Shown: one piece after another, positions 7,247-38,562 of the stretch
Position numbering within the stretch: position 1 is the stretch's first letter
Layout of the letters: each line of letters opens with the position of its first letter
Origin: an uncultured Desulfobacteraceae bacterium
Lineage (GTDB): Bacteria; Desulfobacterota; Desulfobacteria; Desulfobacterales; SKZT01
Length of the DNA: 64,000 nt
Assembly: GCA_964478625.1 (NCBI GenBank)
Contig: CAYZJH010000001.1
Span: forward strand, 140,588-204,587
Direction of reading: 5' to 3'
The notes under the pieces: model-generated
Database searches by the model: none
What the model saw: only the letters and a program-made list of their open reading frames with translations
Told to the model about the DNA's origin: nothing
Translations under genes and position numbers: made by a program

Positions 7247-9461
7247 GGGGGAACTTGAGAAAATCACATATCATAACCAACAAACCCATTACACTATTGC
7301 ACGCGTGAAAACACCTGCAGTTGCCCGACCCGTGACAATAGTTGGCTTTTTGGGTGGTATACAACCTGGAGAGACTTTGAAAATCACGGGTGTTTGGGAG
7401 ACACACCCAAAATATGGACAACAGCTTCGGGTCAAATCCTACGAAGTAAAATTACCCGCAACCATTCAGGGAATTAGAAAATATTTTAAATCCGGTATAA
7501 TTAAGGGGGTAGGCCCTCAGCTGGCCGACCGTCTGGTCGATCATTTCGGTGACAAAACCCTTCAAATTATAGAGCATGATTCCCATAGACTAATGGAAAT
7601 CGATGGAATTGGAAAGCGCAAGGCTGCTTTTATAATAGACGCATGGAACAAACACCATATCATGAGAGGGCTCATGCGTTTTTTGCAGGATATGGGTATA
7701 AAAACAGCTCACGGCGCAAAAATTTTTCATACCTACGGGGATCTTTCCCTTAAAATACTTCAGGAAAATCCATATCGACTTGCCGACGACATTCCTGACA
7801 TTGGTTTCCAAATTGCCGATACCATTGCCCGAAAAATGGGAACTGCGGATGATGACCCAGTGCGTGTCAAAGCCTGTATACTGCATGGTCTTGATAAATA
7901 TGCCGATGAGGGTCACACGTTTGCTTTTAAACACCATCTAACAATTCGTTGCGAGCATCTGTTTAAACTATATCAGGACGCGATAAAAGATGGAATCCAA
8001 AGTCTTTCGGAAACCGGTGAGCTTGTCCTGGATAAAATCGTTCCGGAAAAGGAAGATATTCGACATTGCGAAGGAATTGATGATACTGCCGTTTACAAGA
8101 ATTTTATTTACAAGGCCGAATCCGGTATTGCAACAAGAATTGCAGCACTTCTGTCTGCTCCCATTGATTCAAAAGAGGTAGAGATTGACTTTATTCAAAC
8201 TCAAATTCACAATCAACTATCCATTAATTTATCCCCGGAACAACTGGAAATTTTAAATGATTTGTTTTCTCAAAAGGTTGCGATTATAACCGGTGGTCCC
8301 GGAACCGGAAAAACCACTTTGATACGTTCGATAGCAGCAATATTTAAGGCCATGAACAAAATTGTCCGCTTGGGGGCACCTACTGGAAGAGCCGCCAAAA
8401 AACTTGCAGAAGTCACCCATGAAAAAGCAGCCACCATTCACAGACTTTTAGGCTATACTTTATCTAATGCAAAGCCTGAACAATCCTTTGTGGGAAGAGA
8501 TCGAGACAATCCGCTTGAAGCCGATGTCATTATTATTGATGAAGCGTCCATGATTGATACCCTACTGATGTATCATCTTTTAAATGCGATTTCACCTTCC
8601 TCACAGTTGGTTCTAGTGGGTGATGTTTTTCAGCTTCCTTCAGTTGGACCCGGTACCGTATTATCAGATATGATTCGGTCTCAGGCAATCCGGGTTTATT
8701 ATCTTAATACAATTTTCCGGCAGTCCCAAAAAAGTCAGATTGTCGTCAATGCCCACAAGGTGCGCAATGGGGAGTCTTTTCAACTGACTCCTTTTGATGA
8801 AAATGAACCCATCACCGACTTTTATTTTCTTGAGAAAGAAACACCCAAAAGTATCGCTGAATCCATTGTATCCTTATGTACTCAAATTCTGCCTTCTCGT
8901 TTTTCTCTCAATCCGGTTTCAGACATTCAGGTACTCACACCGATGCATAAAGGAGATGCCGGTACCATCAATCTAAATTTAATGCTTCAGGAAAAAATTA
9001 ATCAATCATCCATTCAGATGGAAACATTGGGAAATACTTTCAAACTTGGTGACAAAGTAATGCACCTCAAAAATAATTACCAAAAAGAAGTTTTTAACGG
9101 AGATATAGGAACTATTCATTCAATGGATTTGGACAGAAAAAGACTTTCAGTGGACTATGACGAACGAATCGTAGAATATGAATATGCCGAAACAGATGAG
9201 CTGTCTCTGGCATACGCCATATCTATTCATAAATCGCAAGGATCCGAATATCCCGCTGTAATCTTACCGCTGATGACTCAGCACTATATGCTTTTGCAGC
9301 GAAATGTTCTTTATACAGCAATAACAAGGGCTATAAACCTAGTAATTATAGTCGGAACTCAAAAAGCATTGCATATCGCTCTCAGCAATGATAACCCGCA
9401 GAAAAGACTCTCTGGTCTATCTTTTCGAATTAGTCAAAATGTGAAATGTTTATTGTCATAA
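7206..9461 (+). CDS. recD2: RecD2-type (RecD-like) SF1B ATP-dependent DNA helicase
   Basis: 751 aa. HhH region (GIGKRKAAFII), Walker A GGPGTGKTT, Walker B IIIDEASM, LVGDVFQLPSVGPG, and C-terminal AISIHKSQGSEY...LYTAITRA. Overlaps the gmhB 3' end by 41 nt. Confidence 0.85.
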   Translation: MRTKQKTNILTVLEGELEKITYHNQQTHYTIARVKTPAVARPVTIVGFLGGIQPGETLKITGVWETHPKYGQQLRVKSYEVKLPATIQGIRKYFKSGIIKGVGPQLADRLVDHFGDKTLQIIEHDSHRLMEIDGIGKRKAAFIIDAWNKHHIMRGLMRFLQDMGIKTAHGAKIFHTYGDLSLKILQENPYRLADDIPDIGFQIADTIARKMGTADDDPVRVKACILHGLDKYADEGHTFAFKHHLTIRCEHLFKLYQDAIKDGIQSLSETGELVLDKIVPEKEDIRHCEGIDDTAVYKNFIYKAESGIATRIAALLSAPIDSKEVEIDFIQTQIHNQLSINLSPEQLEILNDLFSQKVAIITGGPGTGKTTLIRSIAAIFKAMNKIVRLGAPTGRAAKKLAEVTHEKAATIHRLLGYTLSNAKPEQSFVGRDRDNPLEADVIIIDEASMIDTLLMYHLLNAISPSSQLVLVGDVFQLPSVGPGTVLSDMIRSQAIRVYYLNTIFRQSQKSQIVVNAHKVRNGESFQLTPFDENEPITDFYFLEKETPKSIAESIVSLCTQILPSRFSLNPVSDIQVLTPMHKGDAGTINLNLMLQEKINQSSIQMETLGNTFKLGDKVMHLKNNYQKEVFNGDIGTIHSMDLDRKRLSVDYDERIVEYEYAETDELSLAYAISIHKSQGSEYPAVILPLMTQHYMLLQRNVLYTAITRAINLVIIVGTQKALHIALSNDNPQKRLSGLSFRISQNVKCLLS

Positions 9462-9473
9462 AAGGATTCAGTT

Positions 9474-10535
9474 ATGCCTAACTCAATTATCACTGCCACC
9501 GGCAGTTATATTCCACCACGAAAAATAAGCAACGACTATTTCCTAAAGCACGATTTTTACGGTGACGATGGAAATAAACTTGAAAGAACCAACACGGAGA
9601 TCATAAAAAAACTTCTCGAAATAACCGGAATTAAAGAACGGCGCTATGTTACCGATGATCAGACTACATCGGATATTGCAAGCCTTGCCGCGGAGAAGGC
9701 ATTGGAAAGTTATGACAGGGAAAGCCTTGATTACATTATTGTCGCACAAAATTTGGGAGAAGTTAGAGCCGAAAATAATCGGGTGGACATTGTCCCCACC
9801 ATTGCATCCAGAGTTAAACATAAACTTGGAATCAAAAATCCCTATACCGTATGCTTTGATCTTCCGTTCGGATGCCCCGGATGGCTCCAGGGAGCAATTG
9901 TGGCCGATTATTTCATCAAATCAGGTGATGCAAAAAGGATCCTTGTCATAGGGGCAGAAGTTCTATCGAGAGTTTCAGACCCTCACGATATTGACAGCAT
10001 GATATTTGCTGATGGTGCCGGCGCAACTCTAATTGAAGCCACCGATGATCCATCAGGAATCATGTGCCATGTCACACGCTCTGATACCTCTAAAGAAGCC
10101 TACCTGTTGCGAATGGGATCCTCATATAACCCAGATCGCAACGGGAATGATCTTTTCATAAAAATGGATGGCCATCTCATATACAAATATGCTGTTCGCA
10201 CAGTACCCATTGTTATCAAAAAAAGCCTGGATAAAGCAGGAATTGATCTGAAAGATGTTAATAAGTTTTTAATTCACCAGGCAAACGAGAAAATGGATTT
10301 GGCTATTGTTAAAAGACTTTTCAAATTATACGACATAGAAGAAATAGATCCAGATATTATGCCCATGATTATATGCTGGTCAGGAAACAGTTCAGTGGCG
10401 ACACTTCCTACCCTTTTAGATTTAATTCAAAGAGGAAAGCTTAAAAATCACAGGTTAAATTCAGGAGATATTATTGTTTTTGCATCGGTGGGTGCAGGGA
10501 TGAATGTTAATTCGATGATTTATCGTGTTCCCTGA
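9474..10535 (+). CDS. 3-oxoacyl-ACP synthase III (FabH-like KAS III family)
   Basis: 353 aa. N-terminus ITATGSYIPPRKISND. Catalytic Cys context FGCPGWLQG, His in FLIHQAN, Asn in SGNSSVATLP. Confidence 0.8.
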   Translation: MPNSIITATGSYIPPRKISNDYFLKHDFYGDDGNKLERTNTEIIKKLLEITGIKERRYVTDDQTTSDIASLAAEKALESYDRESLDYIIVAQNLGEVRAENNRVDIVPTIASRVKHKLGIKNPYTVCFDLPFGCPGWLQGAIVADYFIKSGDAKRILVIGAEVLSRVSDPHDIDSMIFADGAGATLIEATDDPSGIMCHVTRSDTSKEAYLLRMGSSYNPDRNGNDLFIKMDGHLIYKYAVRTVPIVIKKSLDKAGIDLKDVNKFLIHQANEKMDLAIVKRLFKLYDIEEIDPDIMPMIICWSGNSSVATLPTLLDLIQRGKLKNHRLNSGDIIVFASVGAGMNVNSMIYRVP

Positions 10536-10622
10536 TCTTTTTAAGTATATGAGCGGTGTTGTCTTAAACCGTGGCGACCAGAAATTACCTATTTGATTGG
10601 AATTCCTTTGATTTTAAAAGCC

Positions 10623-10677
10623 AAAAAGGCTTTGTTGCCATTTTAGTTTTAGTAAATCCGGCAAGCAAAGCCTTTTT
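10623..10677. terminator. Bidirectional rho-independent terminator between the convergent fabH-like gene and the rnf operon
   Basis: AAAAAGGCTTTGTTGCC, about 20 nt loop, GGCAAGCAAAGCCTTTTT. This is a 12-bp stem with one bulge, flanked by an A5 run on one side and a T5 run on the other. Confidence 0.6.
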
Positions 10678-10695
10678 AACAAATGTTTCTATACC

Positions 10696-12786
10696 CTACG
10701 CAGCTGCATCCTTGTTATAACAAATCCTGCAACAGGCCAGACATCGTTGAGCTTCCCGCAAAGCGTCATCTTCCTGAAGTACCAAATCGGCCTCATCAAA
10801 AGTTTTTATCCGTTCATAAACTGGTAACTCAGGCATTTCTGCGCGTTTCTTCTTTTCAACACCAGGAACTTTTTCAAACAGAGATTCCTGGATATGCTTT
10901 TTGAAAAGTGCAGTTTCAGGCGCTTTAACCTCTTCGCCCGATAAATACTGATGTATCGACCTGGCGGCTCTTCGCCCTCCCCCAATAGCTTCAACTACAA
11001 GGGAGGCACCGGTAGCAGCATCTCCTGCAGTGAAAATATAGGGAATGTTTGTCTGAAGTGTGATCGGATCAACCGCATCAATCGTACTCCAGCGGGTAAT
11101 GGAAAGTTCCTGAATTCTTTTTGTGTCAGCATTAATGAAAGAGACATCCGGACCTTGTCCGATGGCTGTTATCAGCATATCGCATTCCATAAGGGTTTCA
11201 GAGCCTTCCACAGGTACAGGTCGCCTTCTGCCGCTGGCATCTGGTTCTCCCAGTTCCATTTTTAAATATTCGAGGTGGGTCACATGCCCGTTTTCATCTC
11301 CGATAACTCTGGTGGGGGCTGCAAGAAATGTAAATTTTACGCCTTCATGTTCTGCTGCCACAATTTCAACCTCATTGGCAGGCATTTCTTTCCGGGTACG
11401 GCGGTAGACTATATTGACTTCTTCTGCTCCCAATCTTACCAGAGTTCTGACACAGTCGATGGCTGTATTTCCGCCCCCGATAACAATGCATTTTTTTCCA
11501 ATGGGAATTTGCTCATGGCTTTTTCCCTGCTGGGCCGTAGCAAATCGGGTCAGAAAATTAATGCCAGTATAGCATCCTTTGAGATCTTCACCCTCAACTT
11601 TCAAATTATAGTCTTTCCAGGCACCCACTCCGAGAAATATGGCATCATAGCCGGCAGCCACCAGAGACCCTATGGTAAAATCTTTTCCAAGTTTAACGTT
11701 GGTTTTGGAATTGATACCCAAATTGAGTATACCATCAATTTCCCATTTCAACACCTTTTTGGGCAAACGATATTCGGGTATTCCGTAACGGATCATACCT
11801 CCCAATTCAGGGTTGTCGTCAAAAATGGTCACCGAATGACCAAGCCTTCGAAGGAAAAACGCACACGTCAGACCCGCAGGGCCACCTCCAATAACAGCCA
11901 CTTTTTTTCCGGTATCCGGAGCAACCGATATGTGCAGTCTCTTTCCCGTATTCATTTCATAATCAGCAACAAAGCGTTTCAGCTGATTAATTGAAACTGC
12001 TTCATCCTCAATACCCCTCCGACAAAAGTCTTCACAGGGATGCGGGCATACTCTTCCACAGGATAAAAGCAAAGGATTTCTTTCTCTGATGGTGTGTACA
12101 GCCCCTTCGTAATCTCCTTCTCTGATCTGTGAAATATACCTTGGGATATCAATTTCGGCAGGGCAGGTCTGTTGGCACGGGCCAAGGGCATCCCCTTCCT
12201 TGTTGAGTTCAAGGAGCCGTTCCGACATGGTTCTGATTTTAATGATGCTTTTTGGGCATACTTTCTGGCATGCTCCACATCCGACACACTTTTCCTCAAT
12301 GACAACAGGGAATCCCTCCGCCCCCATTTCAATGGCATCAAAAGCACAAGCCCTAATACAGTCGCCCATTCCCAAACAACCAATGGAACAGACCCTTTTC
12401 CCATCGTATAAGGCTGCCATTGCACTGCAGCTTTTAACACCCATGTAGTAGAACTTGTCATCAGCCCTAAAGCCACCCGTACAAGTATTCATAGACCGAA
12501 GCGGCTCTGCAGTTCCGGGATCAAGTCCCATAACCGCTGCGACATTGGCGGCACCTTCGGGTCCTGCAACAATGCATACGCTCGGGGGAGCCTCACCTTT
12601 GACAACGGCAGCGGCAGCCTGTGAACACCCGGCATAGCCGCACCCACCACAATTTGCTCCGGCCATTTTGTCTTCAACTTCGGCAATTCTGGGATCTTCA
12701 TACACATAGAATGCCTTGCTGGCGGCGCTAAGAACGCTACCGCAAGATACCCCCAATCCCAACATAAATAGAACGGCTTCTATCAC
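10696..12786 (-). CDS. rnfB: RnfB (membrane anchor, Fe-S and 2x[4Fe-4S] ferredoxin domains) fused to a GltD/NfnB-type NAD(P)H-dependent FAD oxidoreductase module
   Basis: GTG start with AAGGAGG RBS, 696 aa. Residues about 1-190 are RnfB-like: TM helix, FYVYEDPRIAEVEDKMAGANCGGCGYAGC, CSIGCLGMGDCIRAC, CVGCGACQKVCP. Residues about 200-620 are GltD-like: CQQTCPAEIDIP...SCGRVCPHPCEDFC, KKVAVIGGGPAGL, GIPEYRLPK, KKCIVIGGGNTAIDC, IFTAGDA. The C-terminal tail carries RCLACCRIC. Confidence 0.85.
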   Translation of the reverse strand: MIEAVLFMLGLGVSCGSVLSAASKAFYVYEDPRIAEVEDKMAGANCGGCGYAGCSQAAAAVVKGEAPPSVCIVAGPEGAANVAAVMGLDPGTAEPLRSMNTCTGGFRADDKFYYMGVKSCSAMAALYDGKRVCSIGCLGMGDCIRACAFDAIEMGAEGFPVVIEEKCVGCGACQKVCPKSIIKIRTMSERLLELNKEGDALGPCQQTCPAEIDIPRYISQIREGDYEGAVHTIRERNPLLLSCGRVCPHPCEDFCRRGIEDEAVSINQLKRFVADYEMNTGKRLHISVAPDTGKKVAVIGGGPAGLTCAFFLRRLGHSVTIFDDNPELGGMIRYGIPEYRLPKKVLKWEIDGILNLGINSKTNVKLGKDFTIGSLVAAGYDAIFLGVGAWKDYNLKVEGEDLKGCYTGINFLTRFATAQQGKSHEQIPIGKKCIVIGGGNTAIDCVRTLVRLGAEEVNIVYRRTRKEMPANEVEIVAAEHEGVKFTFLAAPTRVIGDENGHVTHLEYLKMELGEPDASGRRRPVPVEGSETLMECDMLITAIGQGPDVSFINADTKRIQELSITRWSTIDAVDPITLQTNIPYIFTAGDAATGASLVVEAIGGGRRAARSIHQYLSGEEVKAPETALFKKHIQESLFEKVPGVEKKKRAEMPELPVYERIKTFDEADLVLQEDDALREAQRCLACCRICYNKDAAA

Positions 12787-12803
12787 AACGACCTCCTTAA
12801 AAA

Positions 12804-13379
12804 TTAAGCCATGCCTTTAAATGCGAAAAATGTCAGGGATAGTACACCCGCGGTCACAAGACCTATGGATGTGTCCTGAAGCGGTTTTGGAACTCTTCCA
12901 AGTATAACACGTTCCCGGACTCCTGCAAAGAGAATCAGTGCAAAGCCAAAACCTGTTGCATAGGACATTGCGGAAATCAGAGCCTGAATAAACCCGTATT
13001 CTTCATTGATATTGATCAGGCATACACCCAGTACCGCACAGTTGGTCGTGATTAGAGGGAGAAAAATTCCCAGACCTGCATACAATGCAGGGATGCTCTT
13101 TTTAAGAAACATTTCTACAAACTGGACCAGAGAGGCAATAACCAGAATAAACGCTATGGTTCTCAAATATTGCAAGCCGAATTTGGTCAAGAAGAAAGTA
13201 TTAACAACCCAGGTAATCATCCCGGCCATCGTCAAAACGAATACAACAGCAAATGCCATACCTATGGCAGTTTCCATTTTTTTGGTCGTTCCGAGGAAAG
13301 GACATGCACCTAAATATTGTCCCAGAATAATGTTGTTGATAAAGATACAGCTGATGATAAGGACAATGTAATCGCCCAT
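12804..13379 (-). CDS. rnfA: Rnf complex subunit A
   Basis: 191-aa polytopic membrane protein with typical RnfA/NqrE sequence (NNIILGQYLGACPFLG, LPLITTNCAVLG). Sits between rnfE and rnfB. Confidence 0.9.
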   Translation of the reverse strand: MGDYIVLIISCIFINNIILGQYLGACPFLGTTKKMETAIGMAFAVVFVLTMAGMITWVVNTFFLTKFGLQYLRTIAFILVIASLVQFVEMFLKKSIPALYAGLGIFLPLITTNCAVLGVCLININEEYGFIQALISAMSYATGFGFALILFAGVRERVILGRVPKPLQDTSIGLVTAGVLSLTFFAFKGMA

Positions 13380-13388
13380 GATACTCTC

Positions 13389-13982
13389 CTATTTTTTCCC
13401 AATGAAATTCATAACACAGAGCATAAGGCCAAGTCCGATAAATGCTCCGGGAGCTTCAACCATAAACGTAAACGGTTCGAAGGAAGGTCCGGTAACATCG
13501 ATTCCCAGTATCGTACCGTTGCCCAACAACTCTCTTACTGCGCCCAATGAACCCAGGGCTAACGTAAAACCGATACCAATACCAAGACCATCGGCTATTG
13601 AGGGTACGACACTTCTCTTAAATGCGAAAGCTTCGCTCCTCCCGAGCACGATACAGTTAACCACGATAAGCGGTATGAAAATACCCAGCGCGAGAAACAG
13701 CGGATAGGCAAATGCCTGCATCAGCAATTCCACTACTGTAACAAATGTAGCAATGATGACAATAAAACAGGCAATTCTGACTTTAGCAGGTATGATATTT
13801 CTCATCAAAGACACCAGGGTATTGGCGCAAACCAGCACGAAGGTGGTGGCAATACCCATACCGAGCCCATTTTCAACCGATTTGGTTACAGCAAGAGTGG
13901 GGCACAGACCCAGAACGAGCCTGAACGGTGGTATCTCTTCCCACAACCCTTTAACAAATTCCTGAGTTAATGTTTTAGCCAT
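13389..13982 (-). CDS. rnfE: Rnf complex subunit E
   Basis: 197 aa with RnfE/NqrD-like sequence (NPPFRLVLGLCPTLAVT-type motif PPFRLVLGLCPTLAVTKS, IPLIVVNCIVLGR). Confidence 0.9.
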   Translation of the reverse strand: MAKTLTQEFVKGLWEEIPPFRLVLGLCPTLAVTKSVENGLGMGIATTFVLVCANTLVSLMRNIIPAKVRIACFIVIIATFVTVVELLMQAFAYPLFLALGIFIPLIVVNCIVLGRSEAFAFKRSVVPSIADGLGIGIGFTLALGSLGAVRELLGNGTILGIDVTGPSFEPFTFMVEAPGAFIGLGLMLCVMNFIGKK

Positions 13983-14010
13983 ATTTCTCTCCCTGGAATA
14001 GTTATCGCCT

Positions 14011-14598
14011 TTAGAAGGTTTTTATTTTATCTAAAATCTGGTCCTTATTATCCATATATATTTTGGCGGCCTCATTTGCGGCATTGCACACAGCCCGAGA
14101 GGTAATCGTCGATCCGCTGATGGTGTTGATCGACCCGCCATCATTTGTGACCTTTATCGGACTGTCAATACTCTTGCCCTTAAACTGTGAAACAAAAGAG
14201 GGATCTTCTTTGGCTTTGGCTCCCATTCCGGGAGTTTCCGCGTGGGTGGTGACCGAAACACCATAGATCGTATCATTTTCCACATTAATCGCCACCATCA
14301 CCCCGACATCACCACCATACCCTTTTCCAAACCCTTCCAAAGCTACCGTTTTGGCCGTGCCATCGAACTTACCGATAAAAAAATCCATTTCGGTTTCACC
14401 AATGGCCATTTTAAATCGGTCGGCCACAGGGTCATTGGAAGTACCCACCAGAATTTCTTTAATGGCCGGACCTTTTACAAAATTAAGCTGTGCTACTTCT
14501 ATTCTCTCTTTGGTCCCGTTTCGGATTGCAGCCAGAAGACCACCGGAAAATGAAGCCAGCACTGTCAAGACAATAACCATTTTCATCATGTCACGCAT
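14011..14598 (-). CDS. rnfG: Rnf complex subunit G (FMN-binding)
   Basis: ORF track starts at 14640. The ATG at 14598 directly follows the rnfD stop and precedes the single TM helix (MKMVIVLTVLASF). FMN_bind-type domain with flavinylation-type motif ISGSTITS. Confidence 0.85.
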   Translation of the reverse strand: MRDMMKMVIVLTVLASFSGGLLAAIRNGTKERIEVAQLNFVKGPAIKEILVGTSNDPVADRFKMAIGETEMDFFIGKFDGTAKTVALEGFGKGYGGDVGVMVAINVENDTIYGVSVTTHAETPGMGAKAKEDPSFVSQFKGKSIDSPIKVTNDGGSINTISGSTITSRAVCNAANEAAKIYMDNKDQILDKIKTF

Positions 14599-14599
14599 A

Positions 14600-15559
14600 T
14601 CAATCCACCTTTCCAAGTGCTTTGGGTCTAATTCTTTCAAAAATCGGGCCCAGCAAATTTATGAGCAGAATCGCAAACAAAACACCATCCACATACGCTC
14701 CGATGTTTCGGATCAATACGGTCATAAATCCTCCTACCAGACCGTAAATCAGCATGGGAATAAAGTTGACAGGCGAAGACGAATCCTCAGGGGCCAAGAA
14801 AAAAGCACCAATGAGTGTGTATCCGGTAAGCAGATGGATCATGGGCCCGGCATATTGCTCAGGAGCAACAATATTGAAAATCAATGCGGTGATAAAAATA
14901 CCGGCGAGGAAAGACACAGAAATTTCCCATCTGATAATGCCTCTGATGATCAGGTAGATTCCACCGACAATAAGTCCGAACCCGAAGGTTGACCCTATGC
15001 CGCCGGTTTGTTTTGCCATGAGCAGATCACCCGGGGTAAATCCCTGGACACCTGAGACACCGAATGATTTCAGTGCGGTCAGCGGATAAATGGCATCAAA
15101 TCCAAAATCATAATTGACCAACGCGACATTAAAATCAAAATAATCTCTCCAACCGACGAAAAGAACCAGTGCACCAAGAACAACAGGATTAAAGGGATTG
15201 CTTCCGATGCCGCCGAATATTTGTTGTCCCACAATCACGGCAAAAAATGTACCAGTAATGACAAACCACCATGGAACAGTCGCCGGAAGTAGCATGGCAA
15301 AAATCAAACCAATAACGGCCGCGTTTCCATCTCCGATGGTTTTTTCACTTTTCCGAAGAACATTAATTGCCAGTTCCCACAAAATGGCTGACGACACTGA
15401 CAGGGCTACCACACCGACCGCCGGAATTCCATACTGGTAAAGCCCCATGAGCACAGCCGGCAATGCTGCCAGCAAAATGTTATAATTTCGACTGGGAACC
15501 CGACTGCCGTCATGAATAAATGGAGCATGTGAGACGATAAGTTTTTTCTGACTATACAT
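14600..15559 (-). CDS. rnfD: Rnf complex subunit D-like, apparently lacking the flavinylated Thr
   Basis: 319-aa polytopic protein. RnfD/NqrB hallmarks HAPFIH, GGIGSNPFNP, IRWEI, FFLAPE(D), YVDGVLFAILL. The expected [ST]xAT-PL site reads DAIYPLTALK. Confidence 0.85.
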   Translation of the reverse strand: MYSQKKLIVSHAPFIHDGSRVPSRNYNILLAALPAVLMGLYQYGIPAVGVVALSVSSAILWELAINVLRKSEKTIGDGNAAVIGLIFAMLLPATVPWWFVITGTFFAVIVGQQIFGGIGSNPFNPVVLGALVLFVGWRDYFDFNVALVNYDFGFDAIYPLTALKSFGVSGVQGFTPGDLLMAKQTGGIGSTFGFGLIVGGIYLIIRGIIRWEISVSFLAGIFITALIFNIVAPEQYAGPMIHLLTGYTLIGAFFLAPEDSSSPVNFIPMLIYGLVGGFMTVLIRNIGAYVDGVLFAILLINLLGPIFERIRPKALGKVD

Positions 15560-16826
15560 ACTCTGCCTCCGCTAATCTTATCCGATCGAGTTCATATTTC
15601 GCCAATCTAATATATTGAAAGATCGGAATCCTGGCTACACAAACAAAACTGCAAAGACCACAATCGATGCAGGAATTTAAATCATAATTGCTTTCCGCCT
15701 CTTCATAGTGACCTGGTTCCAAAAGCCGAACAAGCATGTTGACCTGCATTTTTGCCGGACAGATCCTGACACATTCTCCACAGTTAACACAGGGATAATC
15801 GGATACAAATGGAACATTGTCCTTGTCCTGAACCATGATCGCATTGGTCTCGGGAAGAATCGGATGATCTTCGGAATAAATCGCCGACCCGGTCAATGGT
15901 CCTCCAAAAATCACCTGATCCTGATCGTTAATCGTGATATCGCATGCTTTAAATACCTCAGCAACAGGCGTTCCGATTTTAACTGATATCAAAGCAGTGC
16001 TTCCATCTTTTTTAATCAGCGTCAGGATTTTATCCGCGGGAATTTTACCCGTGCTGATTGCAGTTCCGATTGAAGCTACCGCTTCTGCAGATATAAAACA
16101 GTATCCCAAATTCTCGGTTTTTTTGCCGGCCGGGACTACATTTCCAAACAAATTTTTAAGAATCATTTTAGGATTTGCAGCAGGATAACTGCTGCCGACT
16201 GTTTTTACCTCAATACCGGCTGCAGCGGCGACCGCCGCAAGCCTTTCGGGTGCCACCAATACGATCGAATTAATACCTGTAAACTTGCCAATAGCCGCAA
16301 TACCTGATTTGAGCGCCTTCAATCGAGATTGTACAACATACTGGTTTGTCGTAATCCATATATCTTCATCCATGCCGTTAACAACGATTGTGTGGATGTC
16401 GAATTCGGGGTTTTTGAAATTTTTAAGCGGGGGGCAACCCGGCACACATGACAGGTACTTGATCGCATTTTCCAGCGAGATTTCCTTGGCAATTTCGGAA
16501 AACTCCTCATCGAGCTCTTCCTCCTTTGCCGTATCCATCGTAATCGCGGTGTAGTTTCGGCCAAAATCCCCTGCCCAACCGGACAAGTCGGAGACTGTGC
16601 CGGTTACCGGGGAGGCTGCATATACATCTTTAGCGGTAGAAACCAATTGCCCGGTTTTTATCTGATCCCCCTTTTTCAGTTCGTCAATGCCTTTCTGCCC
16701 GGGGCTTGCCAGCAGCAATTTCACCCGGCTGGGCTTGGAAACTTCTACCAGGGCTGGATCTAAATCTGTAAGGACAGTATAATCAATCCGGGGCTTAACC
16801 AGACCAATGAAAGATTTTTTAATCAT
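15552..16826 (-). CDS. rnfC: RnfC-like subunit, with divergent NADH/FMN-site motifs and both 4Fe-4S motifs retained
   Basis: 424 aa. RnfC N-terminal barrel (SPVTGTVSDL), SLBB-like region, CVNCGECVRICP and CIDCGLCSFVCV. The positions of canonical GGAGFP and ECEPY read SCVPGCPPL and NGMDEDIW. Confidence 0.8.
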   Translation of the reverse strand: MIKKSFIGLVKPRIDYTVLTDLDPALVEVSKPSRVKLLLASPGQKGIDELKKGDQIKTGQLVSTAKDVYAASPVTGTVSDLSGWAGDFGRNYTAITMDTAKEEELDEEFSEIAKEISLENAIKYLSCVPGCPPLKNFKNPEFDIHTIVVNGMDEDIWITTNQYVVQSRLKALKSGIAAIGKFTGINSIVLVAPERLAAVAAAAGIEVKTVGSSYPAANPKMILKNLFGNVVPAGKKTENLGYCFISAEAVASIGTAISTGKIPADKILTLIKKDGSTALISVKIGTPVAEVFKACDITINDQDQVIFGGPLTGSAIYSEDHPILPETNAIMVQDKDNVPFVSDYPCVNCGECVRICPAKMQVNMLVRLLEPGHYEEAESNYDLNSCIDCGLCSFVCVARIPIFQYIRLAKYELDRIRLAEAEYV

Positions 16827-16889
16827 AGCCTAACCTTTTTGTTGTTTCGCCGAATCAGGTTAAAAGTCTTAAAATCTGAAGTCCAAAGA

Positions 16890-17384
16890 TTATTTCAGAT
16901 GGCATCCACTACAATCCTGAGGACCGGCTTCGTTTTCCGTATGGCATCCGATGCACTGTCCATGAAACGCATCTGTCTGCATCATTGCCGACATTTCATC
17001 CACGTTATCGTGACAATCGTGGCAACTCTCTGCTGCATAATAGCGTATGCCATTTTTAGTCTCGACTTCGAGCCCTTCATGATCTTCATACTCGTGACAG
17101 CTCAAGCAGGATTCTGCAAATCCTCCTTCCACATTGATGTGACATTCTGCACAAGATGATGTTTCTCCACCATGATGGTGGCAACTATAGCAATCTATGC
17201 TGTAACCGGCTTCTGACATGTGGGTTTTGTGCGTAAACAAAACATTTCCCGCCACACCTTCATACGCAATCCTCAAGGGTTCATCAGGTGCCTTGGCGGA
17301 AAAAGCCGTATAGCTTATCACACCCACAAGGAACAGAATGATTGCCACACCATAGGCCATCTGTAGTTCTTTTTTTGAAGTCAT
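16890..17384 (-). CDS. Small membrane-anchored or secreted hexaheme cytochrome c, first gene of the rnf operon
   Basis: 164 aa. N-terminal hydrophobic signal or anchor (AIILFLVGVISYTAFSAKA). Six CxxCH motifs: CYSCH, CAECH, CLSCH, CHDCH, CIGCH, CSGCH. Confidence 0.85.
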   Translation of the reverse strand: MTSKKELQMAYGVAIILFLVGVISYTAFSAKAPDEPLRIAYEGVAGNVLFTHKTHMSEAGYSIDCYSCHHHGGETSSCAECHINVEGGFAESCLSCHEYEDHEGLEVETKNGIRYYAAESCHDCHDNVDEMSAMMQTDAFHGQCIGCHTENEAGPQDCSGCHLK

Positions 17385-17615
17385 TTTTAACGAATTCCTT
17401 TCAGTAGACGATCATTAAAAAAGTGGGCGCTCCAAAAATTAAAGGAGTGACTTAGCATAATGGTTTATTGCTTGCAAGTTTTTTTTTCAGGATTGTTTTG
17501 GGAGCTCTTTTGGAATAGGGGTCTGGAAGTTGCCCTTTTTATCAAGGGCAAAGGCTTTTTGTTCTTAACCGAAAATCGGATTTATCCGGCTCTTCACGTA
17601 GACCATTCGGCGATG

Positions 17616-19220
17616 TTATCTCTGATCACAGACTCCGCACATGGAACAGGACCCATGATTCGGGCAAGGTGGCGACGTTTTTTCATTCAATGCCCGACGA
17701 TATTCTTTTAGAAGAAAAGATTTATCAATTCCATGATCAATAAAATCCCAGGGGAATAGTTCATCATCATACCGTTTTCTGAGCGTATAGAAATCGGGAT
17801 TTAAAGATGATTCCTTGAAGGTTTTCGGCCAATTTCCGTCATTTTCCACGGCTTGGGCAATCAATACGGATATTTTGCGGTCTCCTCTGGAAAATAATCC
17901 CTGTATAAATGCCCATCGTGGTATGTCGGAATGTATCTTAATATTTGAAACCTTCCTTAGCCCATTTTTAACGATTCTAATTTTTTTCTTTAAGGTCGCA
18001 ACAGTGTCCATGGCGACCCATTGAAATGGTGTTGCCGGTTTAGGAACAAATGAATTCAAGCTGACCGTGATCTCTCCGATACGCTTTTTGGGCCTGCTGA
18101 ATTTTAAAAAAATATGCTTAATTTTTTTGCACATATTTACAATGGCTTCTACATCCTCCATGGTTTCATTCGGAAGTCCTACCATGAAATACAGTTTTAA
18201 ATTGGGGATTCCCGCAGCCACAAGAGTTTCAACAGAAGAATAGATTTGGTCTGAAGAGATCCCTTTGTTAATAATATTGAGCATTCTTTCTGAACCTGCG
18301 TCTGGGGCGATGGTCGCCGTTTTTATACGGCTTTTTCTCAAAAATCGAATAAGTCCGTCAGAGAGTGAATCCACCCTGAGCGAACTAAATGACAATTGCA
18401 AATTTTTCTCACCGGCAAGAGCACAAAGTTTTTCAATGTCAGGATGGTCGGAGATCGCAGCTCCCATAAGCCCAACTTGTTTGGAAACACAAGCGCCGGT
18501 TGCCATATCTTCAGCCAAAAGATTAAAAGGCCTAAACCGCGGGGGTCTGTATAAAAATCCTGCGCTACAAAACCGGCAACCGCGGGCACATCCTCTGGAC
18601 ACTTCTATTAAAAAGGATTCCGCGAAAGTCGTATCACGGGTCAATAATGTGGTGGTTGTCGAAAATTCAGAAAGATCATTAATGCGGATCTTTGGTACTT
18701 TTTTGGGAACATCTTCTATCGGATAAAATTCGGAAAGCGTTCCATTGTCATGATAGCCGACTTTGTAAAAGGCCGGAACATAGATTCCCGGAACATATCG
18801 ACCTATTTTAATCATGCACTCATGCCGACTTTCTGCCGGATCATAGAATTTAAAAAATTCATCCAGCATTCCTTCGGATTCGCCCAGGAAAAAAAGGTCG
18901 AAAAAGGGGGCGATCGGCTCAGGATTTGAAAAACATGCTACACCGCCCCCGACAATGAGAGGATGGTTATCGGACCTGTGGTCCGATAACCAGGGAATCC
19001 CGCTAGAACGAAGAATAGTTAAAATATTTGGAAAATCATTTTCAAAAGATATGGAAAAGGCAACAATATCAAAGTCTTTGAAAATTCTTCCCGACTCCGC
19101 CGACACTGGTTTTCTGGGTCTTAAGGAATGTTCGGGTAAAAAACCTCTTTCACATACCACATGGTCCATCCGGTTAAGTTGCGCATAAACCGTCTGAAAA
19201 CCCAGATTACTCATTCCCAA
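17616..19220 (-). CDS. B12-binding-domain-like radical SAM protein (TIGR03960-like family as I recall it). The true 5' end is probably upstream of 19220.
   Basis: 534 aa from a TTG. Motifs GMSNLGFQTVY and the radical SAM cluster motif VSRGCARGCRFCSAG. C-terminal Cys cluster CPNHGSCSMCGVC. The reading frame stays open upstream to 19331. Confidence 0.8.
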   Translation of the reverse strand: MGMSNLGFQTVYAQLNRMDHVVCERGFLPEHSLRPRKPVSAESGRIFKDFDIVAFSISFENDFPNILTILRSSGIPWLSDHRSDNHPLIVGGGVACFSNPEPIAPFFDLFFLGESEGMLDEFFKFYDPAESRHECMIKIGRYVPGIYVPAFYKVGYHDNGTLSEFYPIEDVPKKVPKIRINDLSEFSTTTTLLTRDTTFAESFLIEVSRGCARGCRFCSAGFLYRPPRFRPFNLLAEDMATGACVSKQVGLMGAAISDHPDIEKLCALAGEKNLQLSFSSLRVDSLSDGLIRFLRKSRIKTATIAPDAGSERMLNIINKGISSDQIYSSVETLVAAGIPNLKLYFMVGLPNETMEDVEAIVNMCKKIKHIFLKFSRPKKRIGEITVSLNSFVPKPATPFQWVAMDTVATLKKKIRIVKNGLRKVSNIKIHSDIPRWAFIQGLFSRGDRKISVLIAQAVENDGNWPKTFKESSLNPDFYTLRKRYDDELFPWDFIDHGIDKSFLLKEYRRALNEKTSPPCPNHGSCSMCGVCDQR

Positions 19221-19314: not shown

Positions 19315-20550
19315 TTAGTCAGCTCTTCTTCTCAAAAACGTCGGAATGTCCAGGTCGTTATTGTCGATGACAAGACCTTTGTAATTTTTATATGGTGAAC
19401 CTTCTGAACCCTCCGCACCCCTTTGATTGCGGACAAATGTCGGTACATCATAATTAACCGCCCTTTCCAGGTCTGCAGGTGTAAGGTCACGAACTTTACC
19501 TCTAATTTTTCTGTCTCTGAATCTTTCGGGCATGGCTGAATCCGCATCCGTTCCAATACCCGTGGCAATAACCGTCACACGAATTTCATCACCCATGGAA
19601 TCATCCACAGCCGTACCCCATATGATATCCGCATCCTCACCCACTTCCCGGTAAATGCGGTCGGATGCCTGGGTCATCTCTTCCATTGTCAGTGAACTTG
19701 ACGAAGTAATATTCATCAGAACGCCTTTGGCTCCGGCAACAGAAATGTCTTCAAGAAGCGGATGTGAAATCGCACGTTCAGCCGCCTCAATAGCCCTGTT
19801 TTCTCCAGTAGCCACACCGATCCCCATCAAAGCGAGCCCTGCTTTCGACATGGTCTCTTTGACATCGGCAAAATCCAGATTAATTTGTCCGGGGAGCATT
19901 ATTAAGTCAGTGATCCCCTTAACCGAGTGAAGCAAAATTTCATCGGCTTTCTTAAACATGGCCAACATAGTGGAATCTTTTTCAGAAATTCCGCGAAGCC
20001 GGTCATTTGGAATGGTAATTACGGTATCAGCCACTTCCTTGAGAGCATAAATTCCATCCTCAGCCTGGCGCGACCTTTTTTTGCCCTCAAACGTAAAGGG
20101 TTTGGTCACTACCGCCACTGTGAGGATTTTTAATTCTCTGCAAATTTCAGCAATAACAGGCGCAGCACCCGTACCAGTACCCCCACCAAAACCTGCTGCG
20201 ATGAAAACCATATGGCTCCCTGACAGAGCATTTCTTATGGCTTCTTCATTTTCCAAAGCTGACTCACGACCTTTAGCAGGATTATTTCCAGCCCCCAAGC
20301 CCTCGGTCAGCCTCTCCCCCAACTGTATCTTCATTGGAGCTCTTGACTTTTGCAGCGCTTGCGCATCGGTATTTGCGGCGATAAAGTCAACACCTCTTAG
20401 GTCACTGTCAATCATATTGTCGATTGCGTTTCCACCACCTCCGCCGACCCCGATAACCTTGATTCGGGCTTGGACATCCCTTTGCCGTGTATGAGCACCA
20501 ACATACGTAAAAGATGACATATCCCCCCCTCCATTGTCGTTAATTGTCAT
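19315..20550 (-). CDS. ftsZ: Cell division GTPase FtsZ
   Basis: IKVIGVGGGGGNAIDNM and GGGTGTGAAPVIA tubulin signature. C-terminal DLDIPTFLRR peptide. I prefer the ATG at 20550, preceded by AAGGAGGAGGG. The ORF-track start at 20589 is the alternative. Confidence 0.95.
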   Translation of the reverse strand: MTINDNGGGDMSSFTYVGAHTRQRDVQARIKVIGVGGGGGNAIDNMIDSDLRGVDFIAANTDAQALQKSRAPMKIQLGERLTEGLGAGNNPAKGRESALENEEAIRNALSGSHMVFIAAGFGGGTGTGAAPVIAEICRELKILTVAVVTKPFTFEGKKRSRQAEDGIYALKEVADTVITIPNDRLRGISEKDSTMLAMFKKADEILLHSVKGITDLIMLPGQINLDFADVKETMSKAGLALMGIGVATGENRAIEAAERAISHPLLEDISVAGAKGVLMNITSSSSLTMEEMTQASDRIYREVGEDADIIWGTAVDDSMGDEIRVTVIATGIGTDADSAMPERFRDRKIRGKVRDLTPADLERAVNYDVPTFVRNQRGAEGSEGSPYKNYKGLVIDNNDLDIPTFLRRRAD

Positions 20551-20605
20551 AGTTCCCTCCTCCTTGGTTTGTTGCATCCCATTGTTCATTCTATTTTAAT
20601 AGGGT

Positions 20606-21832
20606 TTAAATAATTTCCCTGAACCATTTTTTCATTCTCGCCACCAACCTCGAAAAAATGTTTGCATCCCTGATTCTGAATTTCTGGGGATTATGATTTT
20701 TAGCCCCATACAAAAGTAACCCGACACCCGTTGCATACATGGGGTTATTCACCACATCCACTAGTCCGTTAATTCCCCGTGGCTGCCCCAGCCTTGCCGG
20801 TAAGTGAAAAACCGATTCCGCAACATCGGTAATTCCGTCTAACAGTGCAGAACCGCCCGTGATCACAACACCCGATGGAATCAGGTTTTCAACCCCCGCC
20901 CGATATATCTCTCTTCTTATCAGAGAAAATATCTCTTCGACTCTGGGTTCCATTATTTCTCCTAGAATTTGTCTAGGCAGCTTCCGGGGAGGTCTTCCAC
21001 CCATACCTGGGACCTCGATGTTTTCATCGCCTTTTATCTTCGATGCAAGGGCAGTACCATATTCCTTTTTGATCTTTTCAGCCTCTGCAATGGGTGCACG
21101 AAGTCCGATTGCAATATCATTGGTTAAATTATGCCCCCCCAAAGATAATACAAATGTATGATGGATATTTTTCCCTGAGAATATGGCCAGATCACTGGTG
21201 CCTCCACCCACATCAATCAGGGCCGTACCTAATTCTTTTTCTTCTTCCGTAAGAACCGCATCACCTGATGCCAGGGACTCTAGCACAATGTCACAGACAT
21301 CAAGTCCGGCACGGTTGGCACATTTTACAATATTATGGGCCGATGTTACCGCCCCTGTTACGATATGAATTTTGGCTTCCAGCCGCACTCCGGCCATCCC
21401 GATTGGATTGTTGATGCCGGCTTGATCATCCACTATGAATTCCTGGGGCAACACATGAATCAATTCACGATCCATTGGAATCGCAACAGCACGCGCGGCT
21501 TCAATGACACGGTCAACATCCTGCTGGGTCACTTCACGCCCTTTGATAGCGATAATACCGTGGCTGTTAAAACCTGTGATATGTCCGCCGGCAATTCCGG
21601 CATAAACCGATGATATTTCACATCCGGCCATCAATTCGGCTTCTTCAACGGCCTTCTTGATAGAATCTACTGTTGCTTCAATATTGACCACTACCCCTTT
21701 TCTCAATCCTATGGATGGATGAGTTCCAATGCCGATAATGTTGATATCACTTGGACTGACTTCACCCACAACCGCACAGATTTTTGTGGTACCTATATCA
21801 AGGCCGACGATGATATTTTCTTGTCCCTTCAA
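20606..21832 (-). CDS. ftsA: Cell division protein FtsA
   Basis: 408 aa. Actin-fold motifs VGLDIGTTKICAVVGE and IDVGGGTSDLAIF. Sits between ftsQ and ftsZ. Confidence 0.95.
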   Translation of the reverse strand: MKGQENIIVGLDIGTTKICAVVGEVSPSDINIIGIGTHPSIGLRKGVVVNIEATVDSIKKAVEEAELMAGCEISSVYAGIAGGHITGFNSHGIIAIKGREVTQQDVDRVIEAARAVAIPMDRELIHVLPQEFIVDDQAGINNPIGMAGVRLEAKIHIVTGAVTSAHNIVKCANRAGLDVCDIVLESLASGDAVLTEEEKELGTALIDVGGGTSDLAIFSGKNIHHTFVLSLGGHNLTNDIAIGLRAPIAEAEKIKKEYGTALASKIKGDENIEVPGMGGRPPRKLPRQILGEIMEPRVEEIFSLIRREIYRAGVENLIPSGVVITGGSALLDGITDVAESVFHLPARLGQPRGINGLVDVVNNPMYATGVGLLLYGAKNHNPQKFRIRDANIFSRLVARMKKWFREII

Positions 21833-21834
21833 CT

Positions 21835-22692
21835 TTACGCCTCCCCCTTTTGATTGGCTTCAAGCTCGTTCTTAACCGGGTAAACCACGATGCGATCGGG
21901 GTTTATTAAGTCGATATAATTAAAATCATAGAAACTATACTGCTCTTTTAGTTGAGCAATCACTTTTTTCAGCTGTACATATTTTGCGGAATAATTTTCA
22001 AATCCAAGTTTGATCAATTTTTCCTGATCTGAAGTGTGTAATGAAATTCCTATTTGACGATCTACAGCTATGCGTCTTATCTCCTGATTGGGAACCACGC
22101 TTTCAGGTTCCTCTCCCAGTCTGAGCACCTCCATTACCGAATTAAATCTGACACTTCCGGCATTCTGTTTCGTCCTGACGTCCGCATATGAAAGACCTGA
22201 TACCACCGGAATATTTTGATGATCATCAGGTTCCAGTCTTTTAAAAATTATTCCTTCGGTATTCAAGATAAATTTATCTCCCAAATCCAGAATCGCCAGC
22301 GGCTTATGTTCGGTTATTCTAACCGTGATGGTATCGGGAAATACAAGTCCGACCCTGGCTTCTTGAATCCATGGATTCGCCAAAAGTTTTTTCCTTGCAG
22401 TAAAGATATTAAAAGACAGTATATTCATTTTGTCCCGGATCTCCGCCTGATCCCGGACTTGCTGAGCTGAAAGCGTCTCTGCTCCCTCAATAATAACCTG
22501 TTTACATTCAAAATAGCCTGACTGGGTCATCAGGTCATGCCCGAAAATAAAAACCGCGCTCATTGCAGGCACAGAAACAATGCAAAAAATTATTTTAGAA
22601 AACAGAATGAAACGGCGTATCCTTCTGGCCCTAATGACCTCAGGGCTTTCTTTCCGCTGGTTTTTTCTGAACCTTTTGTTTCGCAACCTCAA
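21835..22692 (-). CDS. ftsQ: Cell division protein FtsQ (POTRA domain)
   Basis: 285 aa. Basic N-terminus, one TM helix, then a POTRA/FtsQ-type region (ANPWIQEARVGLVFPDTITVRITEHKPLA). Position in the dcw cluster supports the call. Confidence 0.8.
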   Translation of the reverse strand: MRLRNKRFRKNQRKESPEVIRARRIRRFILFSKIIFCIVSVPAMSAVFIFGHDLMTQSGYFECKQVIIEGAETLSAQQVRDQAEIRDKMNILSFNIFTARKKLLANPWIQEARVGLVFPDTITVRITEHKPLAILDLGDKFILNTEGIIFKRLEPDDHQNIPVVSGLSYADVRTKQNAGSVRFNSVMEVLRLGEEPESVVPNQEIRRIAVDRQIGISLHTSDQEKLIKLGFENYSAKYVQLKKVIAQLKEQYSFYDFNYIDLINPDRIVVYPVKNELEANQKGEA

Positions 22693-24996: not shown

Positions 24997-25004
24997 CGCC
25001 CCGT

Positions 25005-28710: not shown

Positions 28711-28724
28711 CGTTTCTGTGATAA

Positions 28725-31231: not shown

Positions 31232-31259
31232 ACCATTTCTTTATTGAGGTTATTCAAAA

Positions 31260-34857: not shown

Positions 34858-34900
34858 AACGGACTATCTTTCCATTTCCGAAACAATCAAAAATACAGGA

Positions 34901-36295: not shown

Positions 36296-36570
36296 CCATT
36301 ATCCTCCACTTTACCCCACCTTTTGTGCAATAATCTATCATTCACCTCTTTATGTCAAGAAAAATTAATTTTTTTATCAAAAAATTTTCAATAAATCACA
36401 AATGTTAAGTTAAATGTAACATCGTGTCATCAAGTGGAGTCTATCTTTCCAAAATTCCTTCCTATCTCCATGGATATAAAATCAATTAATAAAGACTTGA
36501 ACATGCAACTAGGGTGTTGTAATTAGTTTTTTTGCTGATTTTAATCTCACAAAAACATCAAGGAGGTTTC

Positions 36571-37887: not shown

Positions 37888-37945
37888 ATCTATTCCTGAT
37901 TGCCAGGCTGAAACTATAACCCAAAAACGAATGAAGGAGGCCTTT

Positions 37946-38545: not shown

Positions 38546-38562
38546 TCAAGGAGGGGAAACCG

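Follow-up and report, generated by a model that had tools for sequence, protein, structure and literature searches.

What does an RnfB do with a flavoprotein joined to its end, and where would the electrons go? The question is raised by a 64,000-nucleotide stretch of DNA from an uncultured Desulfobacteraceae bacterium (contig CAYZJH010000001.1 of assembly GCA_964478625.1, forward-strand positions 140,588 to 204,587; this whole stretch is called the window, and all coordinates are given in it). An initial annotation, made from the letters alone, had noticed there a single 696-amino-acid (aa) open reading frame (ORF) that joins RnfB in frame to a GltD/NfnB-type NAD(P)H:FAD oxidoreductase. We found that the fusion is genuine and that the gene is the large RnfB of the Rnf2 ("Desulfobacula toluolica Tol2-type") complex of Desulfobacterales, which has already been published. 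New here are the predictions of an StnC-type NADPH module, a flavin-less RnfD and a six-cluster RnfB. In the reading that we favour, and to which we give about an even chance, NADPH would enter this complex at RnfB, and electrons would leave it via the flavin mononucleotide (FMN) of RnfG to a periplasmic multihaem cytochrome c.

The fused gene and its spread

The gene forms one unbroken ORF of 696 aa at 10696..12786 on the minus strand, with a GTG start and its stop at 10696-10698. The encoded protein divides into four parts:

12217..12786, minus strand: RnfB module (aa 1-190), with a transmembrane anchor, ferredoxin module FdI holding one [4Fe-4S] cluster (C46/C49/C54/C71), the C102/C120 pair, and ferredoxin module FdII holding two [4Fe-4S] clusters (C133-C177)
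11917..12216, minus strand: linker and truncated Fer4_20 domain (aa 191-290), with C204, C208, C243, C247, C251, C255 and Lys270
10927..11916, minus strand: flavin adenine dinucleotide (FAD) and NAD(P)H Rossmann domains (aa 291-620), matched by Pyr_redox_2 (E 2e-31)
10696..10926, minus strand: C-terminal tail (aa 621-696 and stop), a permuted N-terminal Fer4_20 segment that ends RC682-L-A-C685-C686-R-I-C689

The domain calls that had been proposed as a check all returned matches, which supports the GltD-like FAD/NAD(P)H domains. Pfam placed PF04060 FeS at residues 43-72 (E 2e-10), a Fer4-family dicluster domain at residues 136-183, Fer4_20 at residues 203-280 (E 3.5e-24) and Pyr_redox_2 at residues 294-603. 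Among NCBIfam models, those for RnfB spanned residues 1-197 and those of GltD type spanned 199-690. The RnfB subfamily model TIGR01944 reached its threshold (77.5 vs 68.7); RnfB equivalog models stayed below theirs (e.g. NF005503, 160 vs 252). PRK12771, the best GltD-type model, scored 507.2 bits, below its cut-off of 516, and its positions 1-44 and 522-566 had no counterpart in the window protein.

All motifs quoted in the initial annotation were present in the translation. They include the Fe-S motifs C46GGC49GYAGC54, PC204QQTC208P and GRVC247PHPC251EDFC255, the Rossmann motifs VIGGGPAGL and VIGGGNTAIDC (cores GGGPAGL and GGGNTA), and RC682LAC685C686RIC689 at the extreme C-terminus. Its count of two CxxCxxCxxxCP-type motifs in the RnfB part has to be reduced: there is a single canonical one (C167-C177), and the second half of the dicluster is spaced atypically (C133-x3-C137-x5-C143-x3-C147). 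The RnfB module aligned with residues 7-195 of 7zc6_B (E 3.5e-48) and residues 12-191 of 9eri_B, and the alignment to three solved RnfB chains began at residue 1-4. Judged by these alignments, the N-terminal 190 residues are an ordinary clostridial-type RnfB with membrane anchor, mobile FdI and FdII. The C-terminal part is, by its domains and motifs, a GltD/NfnB-type flavoprotein with two predicted [4Fe-4S] clusters, FAD and an NAD(P)H site.

One explanation had to be considered first, namely that two genes (rnfB and a gltD-like gene) had been joined by a frameshift in assembly or sequencing, a worry that the initial annotation itself had raised. We regard this as practically excluded, and no point in its favour was found. 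The junction DNA (12100-12300) contains no long homopolymer run, and the RnfB/GltD junction is in frame across all homologues examined. In a large protein collection, the best 120 homologues were 685-712 aa long, covered 97-100% of the query at 73-94% identity and had an identical Pfam architecture. A scan of species-representative genomes detected relatives in 254 genomes, nearly all of them Desulfobacterales; the host groups include Desulfosarcina, Desulfococcus, Desulfonema, Desulfatirhabdium and Desulfosudaceae, and the top match was a Desulfobacteraceae metagenome-assembled genome (92% identity). In all, 295 fusion proteins from independent assemblies were aligned, each a single ORF of 680-712 aa. 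The large RnfB has also been detected by proteomics in cultured strains (PMC5109826). It is these conservation data that refute the artefact.

Gene order was compared in 80 loci retrieved out of the relatives in 254 genomes. Every locus contained a near-full-length match to the fused RnfB, which was full-length in about 60 with intact flanks. The order cyt c-rnfC-D-G-E-A-rnfB was kept wherever the flank sufficed (cytochrome in 60 loci, rnfC in 63). The exceptions are three: L045 and L075, whose fused gene stands apart from the rnf genes, and L074, which is rearranged and has the fused rnfB (8001-10112) ahead of cyt c-rnfCDGEA, with two small genes between. Another seven clusters, formed at 50% identity, contain the full-length fusion as well, the most distant of them at 37% identity.

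Rnf2 (Tol2-type), as published, is defined by an RnfB of ~700 aa that includes a pyridine-nucleotide oxidoreductase domain, by an RnfC in which the NADH/FMN domain is lacking, by a cytochrome c gene within the cluster and by a host from the Desulfobacteraceae; this locus fits on all counts. A different type of Rnf in Desulfobacula toluolica Tol2 goes back to Woehlbrand et al. 2013, as cited in PMC5109826, and the lines that the latter devotes to the Tol2-type describe an RnfB of ~700 aa with NAD-binding sites and an RnfC without NADH-binding and soluble-ligand-binding domains. Doerries et al. 2016 reported the Tol2-type cluster (Rnf2, with cytochrome gene) in Desulfococcus multivorans and saw its subunits by proteomics (PMC5109826). 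A 2025 study found Rnf2 to belong to the core genome of Desulfobacteraceae and to be abundant and constitutive (PMC11887813 and supplement). Its authors suggested that ferredoxin, perhaps NADH, is oxidised and the associated cytochrome c3 reduced, which could feed Qrc (PMC11887813); the remaining Rnf2 subunits were called very similar (PMC11887813 supplement). Literature searches for a fusion of RnfB with GltD, NfnB or glutamate synthase returned nothing relevant, and the description surfaced via the Desulfobacteraceae genome papers. The terms "Desulfobac", "sulfate" and "cytochrome c" are absent from a 2025 RNF/NQR review (PMC12174285). The passages describing Rnf2 in PMC5109826 and PMC11887813 make no mention of permuted ligands, StnC kinship, an NADPH signature or the loss of the RnfD threonine.

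A permuted StnC-like flavin module

From the RCxxC at the very end of the protein, the initial annotation had supposed that cluster ligands might be permuted. This proved right, as the tail is homologous to the N-terminus of NfnB. In native order, Fer4_20 matched at model positions 31-111 only (87.9 bits). When residues 641-685 were grafted ahead of residue 200, the match grew to the full-length 1-111 (118.1 bits); a scrambled-tail graft, used as a control, gave 87.7 bits. The tail by itself matched model positions 1-29. Residues 646-685 aligned with residues 6-45 of Pyrococcus furiosus NfnI-B (E 9e-6) and with residues 3-43 of T. maritima NfnB, and the alignment with NfnB terminated at RC-x2-C, whose Cys42 and Cys45 are the first two cluster ligands of NfnB (JBC paper). 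By this homology, two ligands of the distal cluster, C682 and C685, are supplied by the extreme C-terminus. The tail also aligned with residues ~487-594 of 9bov_A, 9n5u_A and StnC, that is, behind their flavin domain region, and the permutation is therefore common to this group.

These same three proteins were the best matches of the C-terminal part among solved structures (9n5u_A, 432 bits; 9bov_A, 420; StnC 8oh5_C, 382). NfnB scored lower (349 bits for 5jca_L, and 333), as did GltD (2vdc_G, 240 bits). About 130 of the 150 best representatives from a library of 1.8 billion proteins were proteins of 500-1500 aa, mostly at least 800 aa long, and these matched query residues ~180-686, with linker and tail included. 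Homology to StnC-type proteins starts already at about aa 180, inside the linker before Fer4_20. The window protein thus has a circularly permuted GltD module of the StnC/FdhB kind where other RnfB proteins have the distal ferredoxin module FdIII.

We then compared individual residues. Lys270 (QLKRF) occupies the position of StnC K170 and of NfnB Glu126, as determined by residue counting along the alignments, and is present in 294 of the 295 fusions. Asn471 stands where bifurcating NfnB has its conserved Arg333, and Arg340 is the conserved counterpart of NfnB Arg201. Arg463 and Arg520 correspond to the NADP(H)-contacting Arg325 and Arg382 of PfNfnI-B. R340, R463, R520 and N471 are all invariant within the clade of the window protein, and the pattern of Y461-R462-R463-T-R-K-E-M-P-A and G519-R520-R521-R522-P is identical to that of NADPH-binding NfnB and StnC. 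The choice between NADH and NADPH, which the initial annotation had proposed to predict from the second Rossmann fold, falls on the latter: from the Arg pair and the other conserved contact residues, the dinucleotide site is predicted to be NADPH-specific. The flavin of StnC does not bifurcate, and its K170 is essential (PMC10482914). On the basis of Lys270/Asn471, the Arg pair and the StnC kinship, the module is of StnC type and would probably serve as a non-bifurcating entry point for NADPH.

NfnB-type electron bifurcation, in which NADPH would deliver electrons at FAD, one of them to the Rnf chain and cytochrome and the other uphill to ferredoxin, appears very unlikely to us. The NfnB fold (349 bits to 5jca_L) and the conserved R340 are in keeping with it. 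However, three hallmarks of bifurcating NfnB are missing: Arg333 is Asn471 here, the Glu ligand is Lys270, and nfnA is absent from the cluster, where the gene directly upstream of the fused rnfB is rnfA. In addition, StnC, the closest relative of known mechanism, has lost bifurcation (PMC10482914), and a second exit path from FAD is not evident.

The conserved cysteines suggest how the module may be wired to RnfB. Invariant in the 295 fusions are C46, 49, 54, 71, 102, 120, 133, 137, 143, 147, 167, 170, 173 and 177, and also C204, 208, 247, 251, 255, 682, 685 and 689; C243 is present in 291. One further cysteine alternates between two sites, residue 200 (codon 12187-12189, minus strand) and residue 686 (codon 10729-10731, minus strand). 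Cys at 200 was accompanied by Gly at 686 in 95/95 proteins and a non-Cys residue at 200 by Cys at 686 in 199/199, with one exception in the alignment. The window protein has Ala200 and Cys686. C686 and C689 had at one point been taken for a universally conserved pair; this was weakened, since only C689 is universal. An assignment of StnC Cys114 to the "GDC" cysteine was likewise rejected, as a residue count puts C114 opposite Ile214 of the window protein and makes the GDC cysteine residue 100 of the chain.

Together with the alternating one, the 23 invariant or near-invariant cysteines amount to 24, which would suffice for six [4Fe-4S] clusters with cysteine ligands throughout. FdI would hold one of these, FdII and the GltD part two each, which leaves one further cluster. 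The fifth cluster of C. tetanomorphum RnfB takes two of its cysteines from segment 91-140 and the other two from the linker between FdII and FdIII (PMC9588780). The window RnfB keeps the first pair (C102, C120), and its linker 181-203 has no cysteine. C689 and C686 (C200 in the other clade) could complete a cluster with C102/C120, so that a sixth, bridging [4Fe-4S] is probably formed by C102, C120, C689 and C686, and the tail would staple the flavin module to the RnfB chain.

Partner subunits and the proposed path of electrons

The fused rnfB is the last gene of a minus-strand cluster in the order cyt c, rnfC, rnfD, rnfG, rnfE, rnfA, rnfB. The genes upstream of it are:

16890..17384, minus strand: multihaem cytochrome c, membrane-anchored or secreted (164 aa, six CxxCH, hydrophobic N-terminus), first gene of the cluster
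15552..16826, minus strand: RnfC-like protein, both [4Fe-4S] motifs kept, FMN/NADH motifs lost
14600..15559, minus strand: RnfD, with Tyr158 (codon 15086-15088) at the position of the covalent-FMN threonine
14011..14640, minus strand: RnfG, the periplasmic FMN subunit (Pfam FMN_bind), flavinylation motif S175-G-S-T178 intact
13389..13982, minus strand: RnfE (Pfam Rnf-Nqr, E 1e-65), with LGLCPTLAV and VVNCIVLGR
12804..13379, minus strand: RnfA (Pfam Rnf-Nqr, E 3e-52), with LGACPFLG and TTNCAVLG

The cytochrome matched Cytochrom_CIII in Pfam (E 3e-9) and the TmcA and c7-like models in NCBIfam, and, of the 63 related loci with rnfC, 60 have its gene directly upstream of rnfC. Directly upstream of the cytochrome gene itself, a radical SAM protein (Radical_SAM_N2 and Radical_SAM; 17616-19220, minus strand) is encoded; it is equally placed in 22 of the 80 related loci and also occurs in the rearranged L074. 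A promoter/terminator scan of 10400-17800 gave the same counts as shuffled sequence.

RnfC scored 175.6 bits against TIGR01945 (cut-off 246) and gave a partial NqrA match. Compared with the RnfC chains in the PDB and E. coli RsxC, it reads VPGC--PPLKNF for GLGGAGFPT and NGMDEDIW for NAAECEPY. Of the 61 RnfC orthologues, none contained GxGGxxFP or ECEP, and each retains a pair of CxxCxxCxxxC motifs; conservation is poor in the N-terminal half.

RnfD has lost its flavinylation site in a similarly uniform way. In HMMER alignments, its AIYPL aligned with (T)TATPL of A. woodii and C. tetanomorphum RnfD, and Thr153, before PL, is the covalent FMN attachment site in C. tetanomorphum (PMC9588780). Thr or Ser occurred at this column in none of 63 orthologues (Y52, F5, D3, H2, Q1), nor was an [ST]xA[ST] motif found in the RnfD loop of any of them. 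An engineered NqrB-T236Y lost FMN and electron flow (PMC12901251), and the chain of this variant (9ud3_B) outscores the wild-type chain (7xk3_B) against the window RnfD (81.5 vs 78.2 bits). A MAFFT alignment with E. coli RsxD had, without a gap, put the flavinylated threonine opposite window Thr161. This was rejected because the position is unconserved (A27, T10, S10, G9) and without xGAT context, and because HMMER, when it aligned the protein to three RnfD structures, followed the PL...K frame instead. In RnfG, Thr178 and the [STG]G[AS]T motif are present in 64/64 orthologues. The Cys pairs of RnfA and RnfE are expected, by analogy with the NQR/RNF literature (PMC12174285), to ligate an intramembrane [2Fe-2S] cluster.

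In the canonical complex, electrons run Fe(RnfAE)-FMN(RnfG)-FMN(RnfD)-riboflavin-RnfC clusters-FMN(RnfC)-NAD+ (PMC9588780). Here the last four stations of this route are missing or doubtful, and its first half is intact and has gained a predicted flavin/NADPH entry. As RnfD is without the FMN-attachment threonine and RnfC without the FMN/NADH site, reduction of NAD+ at RnfC would not be the outlet. In the path that we propose as the best supported, NADPH would reduce FAD, with the module acting as a non-bifurcating converter of hydride to single electrons. From FAD, electrons would pass over the Lys270-type proximal cluster to the distal cluster, then probably over the bridging sixth cluster to FdII and FdI. 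FdI would deliver them to the [2Fe-2S] of RnfA/E, and they would cross the membrane to the covalently bound FMN of RnfG. Electrons would most likely leave to the multihaem cytochrome c whose gene opens the operon, and this cytochrome would pass them on to sulfate-respiration complexes that face the periplasm, such as Qrc. This NADPH-to-cytochrome c reading has the same direction as the proposal in PMC11887813 and makes it more precise. Its most specific form, an Rnf2 that exports electrons outward from NADPH at RnfB, through the tail-stapled sixth cluster and RnfG-FMN to cytochrome c, with the RnfD/RnfC half a dead end, is possible, and we put it forward tentatively, at somewhat below even chances.

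Two other arrangements deserve consideration, each of which we judge unlikely. According to the first, the protein would be a membrane-tethered ferredoxin:NADP+ oxidoreductase, like the free-standing NfnB-like Fnor, that works mainly between NADP(H) and soluble ferredoxin docked on its Fe-S domains, with the Rnf core a side branch or unused. The retention of FdII, the acceptor of ferredoxin-derived electrons, would suit such an enzyme, as would two loci in which the fused gene stands apart from the rnf genes. It is opposed by the strict cyt c-rnfCDGEA-rnfB order in ~60/63 loci with enough flank and by the invariant membrane anchor and mobile FdI, whose only known job is delivery to RnfA/E. Moreover, the module is nearer to the StnC type, for which ferredoxin is not a physiological reaction partner (PMC12221290).

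The second arrangement would swap the polarity of the complex: NAD(P)H would react at RnfB, an Fe-S-only RnfC would dock ferredoxin or another cytoplasmic protein, and the full RnfB-AE-G-D-C loop would be used and ion-coupled. RnfC speaks for it, with both [4Fe-4S] motifs retained in every orthologue while the N-terminal half drifts, and with its need for a partner other than NAD(H) (PMC5109826). RnfD, however, speaks against it. Its FMN threonine is lost in every orthologue with no substitute motif, the equivalent T236Y in NQR removes FMN and interrupts electron flow, and the canonical path needs FMN-RnfD between FMN-RnfG and riboflavin. With NADPH as donor, reduction of ferredoxin at RnfC would also be uphill.

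Several points weigh against the NADPH-to-cytochrome c reading. Concerning the partner subunits, RnfD could bind flavin non-covalently, and the conserved [4Fe-4S] motifs of RnfC suggest electron transfer with some partner, which the model leaves unexplained. Electron export with no way back dissipates membrane potential, unless something offsets it, for example Qrc or ion pumping. As to gene context, L045 (8001-10085) and L075 (7954-10047) carry the fused rnfB without rnf genes in the 8 kilobases upstream. For the sixth cluster, the alternation of residues 200 and 686 reflects few evolutionary events. An AlphaFold2 model of the whole protein (51-sequence alignment of close homologues) had a mean predicted local distance difference test score (pLDDT) of 67, with Fe-S regions and tail below 50, and was too poor to judge tail packing. 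In the literature, no biochemical study of any Rnf2 complex was found, and all functional steps are inferred from sequence. Finally, in distant fusions, the NADPH Arg pair and GGGNTA are often degenerate.

The distant fusions form a second, divergent clade. A search with the most distant of them returned hundreds more, with source names that include Kiritimatiellae, Candidatus Eisenbacteria and Deltaproteobacteria. As P0124, P0133, P0145 and P0164 show, several clades of distant fusions have GGGNTA, the YRR Arg pair and the GEPDASGRRRP loop in degenerate form or lack them, and these clades may have lost NAD(P)H binding. NADPH oxidation may therefore be neither the original role of the module nor one that all fusions share.

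Two loci of the 37%-identity clade, from other phyla (L081 and L082), were compared with the window. In both, a cytochrome c with 10-12 haems is encoded upstream, RnfC is devoid of the FMN/NADH motifs, and RnfD has Tyr or Glu in place of the Thr and no xGAT-like motif. RnfG has its motif, and RnfE, RnfA and the fused RnfB are present. Four traits therefore recur in them, namely the RnfB fusion, the lack of motifs in RnfC, the lack of the Thr in RnfD and the upstream cytochrome c. In these loci (L081, 11087-19173; L082, 11092-20076), the next gene after the fused one encodes a NuoG/FdhA-like protein (940-982 aa) joined to a NuoE-like domain; then come DRTGG/CBS/HATPase genes and, further on, a NuoF-like protein. 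Together these downstream genes make up a StnAB/HydBC-type module, as if StnC were split between RnfB and a separate protein.

Beyond the cluster, FtsZ, whose motifs were seen directly, lies with a same-strand run of genes at 19315-35842, which may be a cell-division cluster. At 36532-40446 (plus strand), a FAD-dependent pyridine-nucleotide oxidoreductase of 451 aa, a 204-aa ORF and a 634-aa protein of the Prismane/CO-dehydrogenase family (E 8e-184) are encoded; this looks like a cooS-type carbon monoxide dehydrogenase cluster. In a 473-aa ORF at 62179-63600 (plus strand), the N-terminal part resembles CarS (CDP-archaeol synthase family) or a cytidylyltransferase and is joined to a calcineurin-like phosphoesterase domain, an unusual pairing for a bacterium.

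Significance and comparison with known systems

Desulfobacteraceae account for a large share of carbon mineralisation in marine sediments, and Rnf2 is core-genome and abundant in them (PMC11887813). If NADPH-to-cytochrome c transfer is correct, it would explain how cytoplasmic reducing equivalents pass to periplasm-facing respiratory complexes, and the Rnf core would be able to run on its RnfB-AE-G half alone. If the tentative exporter form also holds, Rnf2 would be a second independent conversion of Rnf to a nicotinamide-driven respiratory entry complex, besides Na+-NQR. For Desulfobacteraceae without periplasmic hydrogenases, Rnf2 would then also be the donor that has been missing from the periplasmic cytochrome c/Qrc route.

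The Rnf2 of the earlier descriptions (PMC5109826, PMC11887813) is the same object as the window locus, with nothing essential different. Those papers call the extra RnfB domain NAD-binding, whereas our analysis predicts NADPH.

The closest solved relatives of the module are StnC of the Sporomusa ovata Stn transhydrogenase (8OH5), 9BOV_A and 9N5U_A (382-432 bits). They share with it the RCxxC behind the flavin domain, the lysine (K170 = K270), the NADPH Arg motifs and the linker homology. In the StnC group, the module is inserted in a soluble NuoG/FdhA-like protein whose partners are HydBC-like bifurcating subunits, whereas in the window it is carried by an RnfB with a membrane anchor. The GDC position is Cys in StnC and Ala200 in the window protein, and StnC C114 corresponds to window Ile214. 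NfnB (5JCA, 4YLF) has the same fold and cofactor set (two [4Fe-4S], FAD, NADPH), and the window tail aligns with it including C42 and C45. However, NfnB is unpermuted, has the Glu126 ligand and Arg333, needs NfnA and bifurcates, none of which applies to the window module.

With canonical RnfB (C. tetanomorphum 7ZC6_B, A. woodii 9ERI_B), residues 1-191 align throughout, including the transmembrane helix, FdI, the C102/C120 segment and FdII. Canonical RnfB continues with further ferredoxin modules and has no flavin (PMC9588780); the window protein continues with the flavin module instead. The FdII-FdIII linker of canonical RnfB provides the two remaining ligands of the fifth cluster, whereas the window linker has no cysteine. 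Of the other features of canonical ferredoxin:NAD+ Rnf, the FMN/NADH site of RnfC and the Thr of RnfD are both absent here, and the Thr of RnfG is kept.

Na+-NQR is the functional analogue. It has a nicotinamide-oxidising flavoprotein with an anchor and a small mobile Fe-S domain at the RnfB position, and its RnfC homologue NqrA lacks an NADH site, as does the window RnfC (PMC12174285, PMC9588780). The parts differ: NqrF is of FNR type with a [2Fe-2S] cluster and unrelated to GltD, NqrA is without any clusters, NqrB keeps its covalent FMN, and the acceptor is quinone, not cytochrome c. In its logic, the predicted complex resembles Na+-NQR, and not ferredoxin:NAD+ Rnf.

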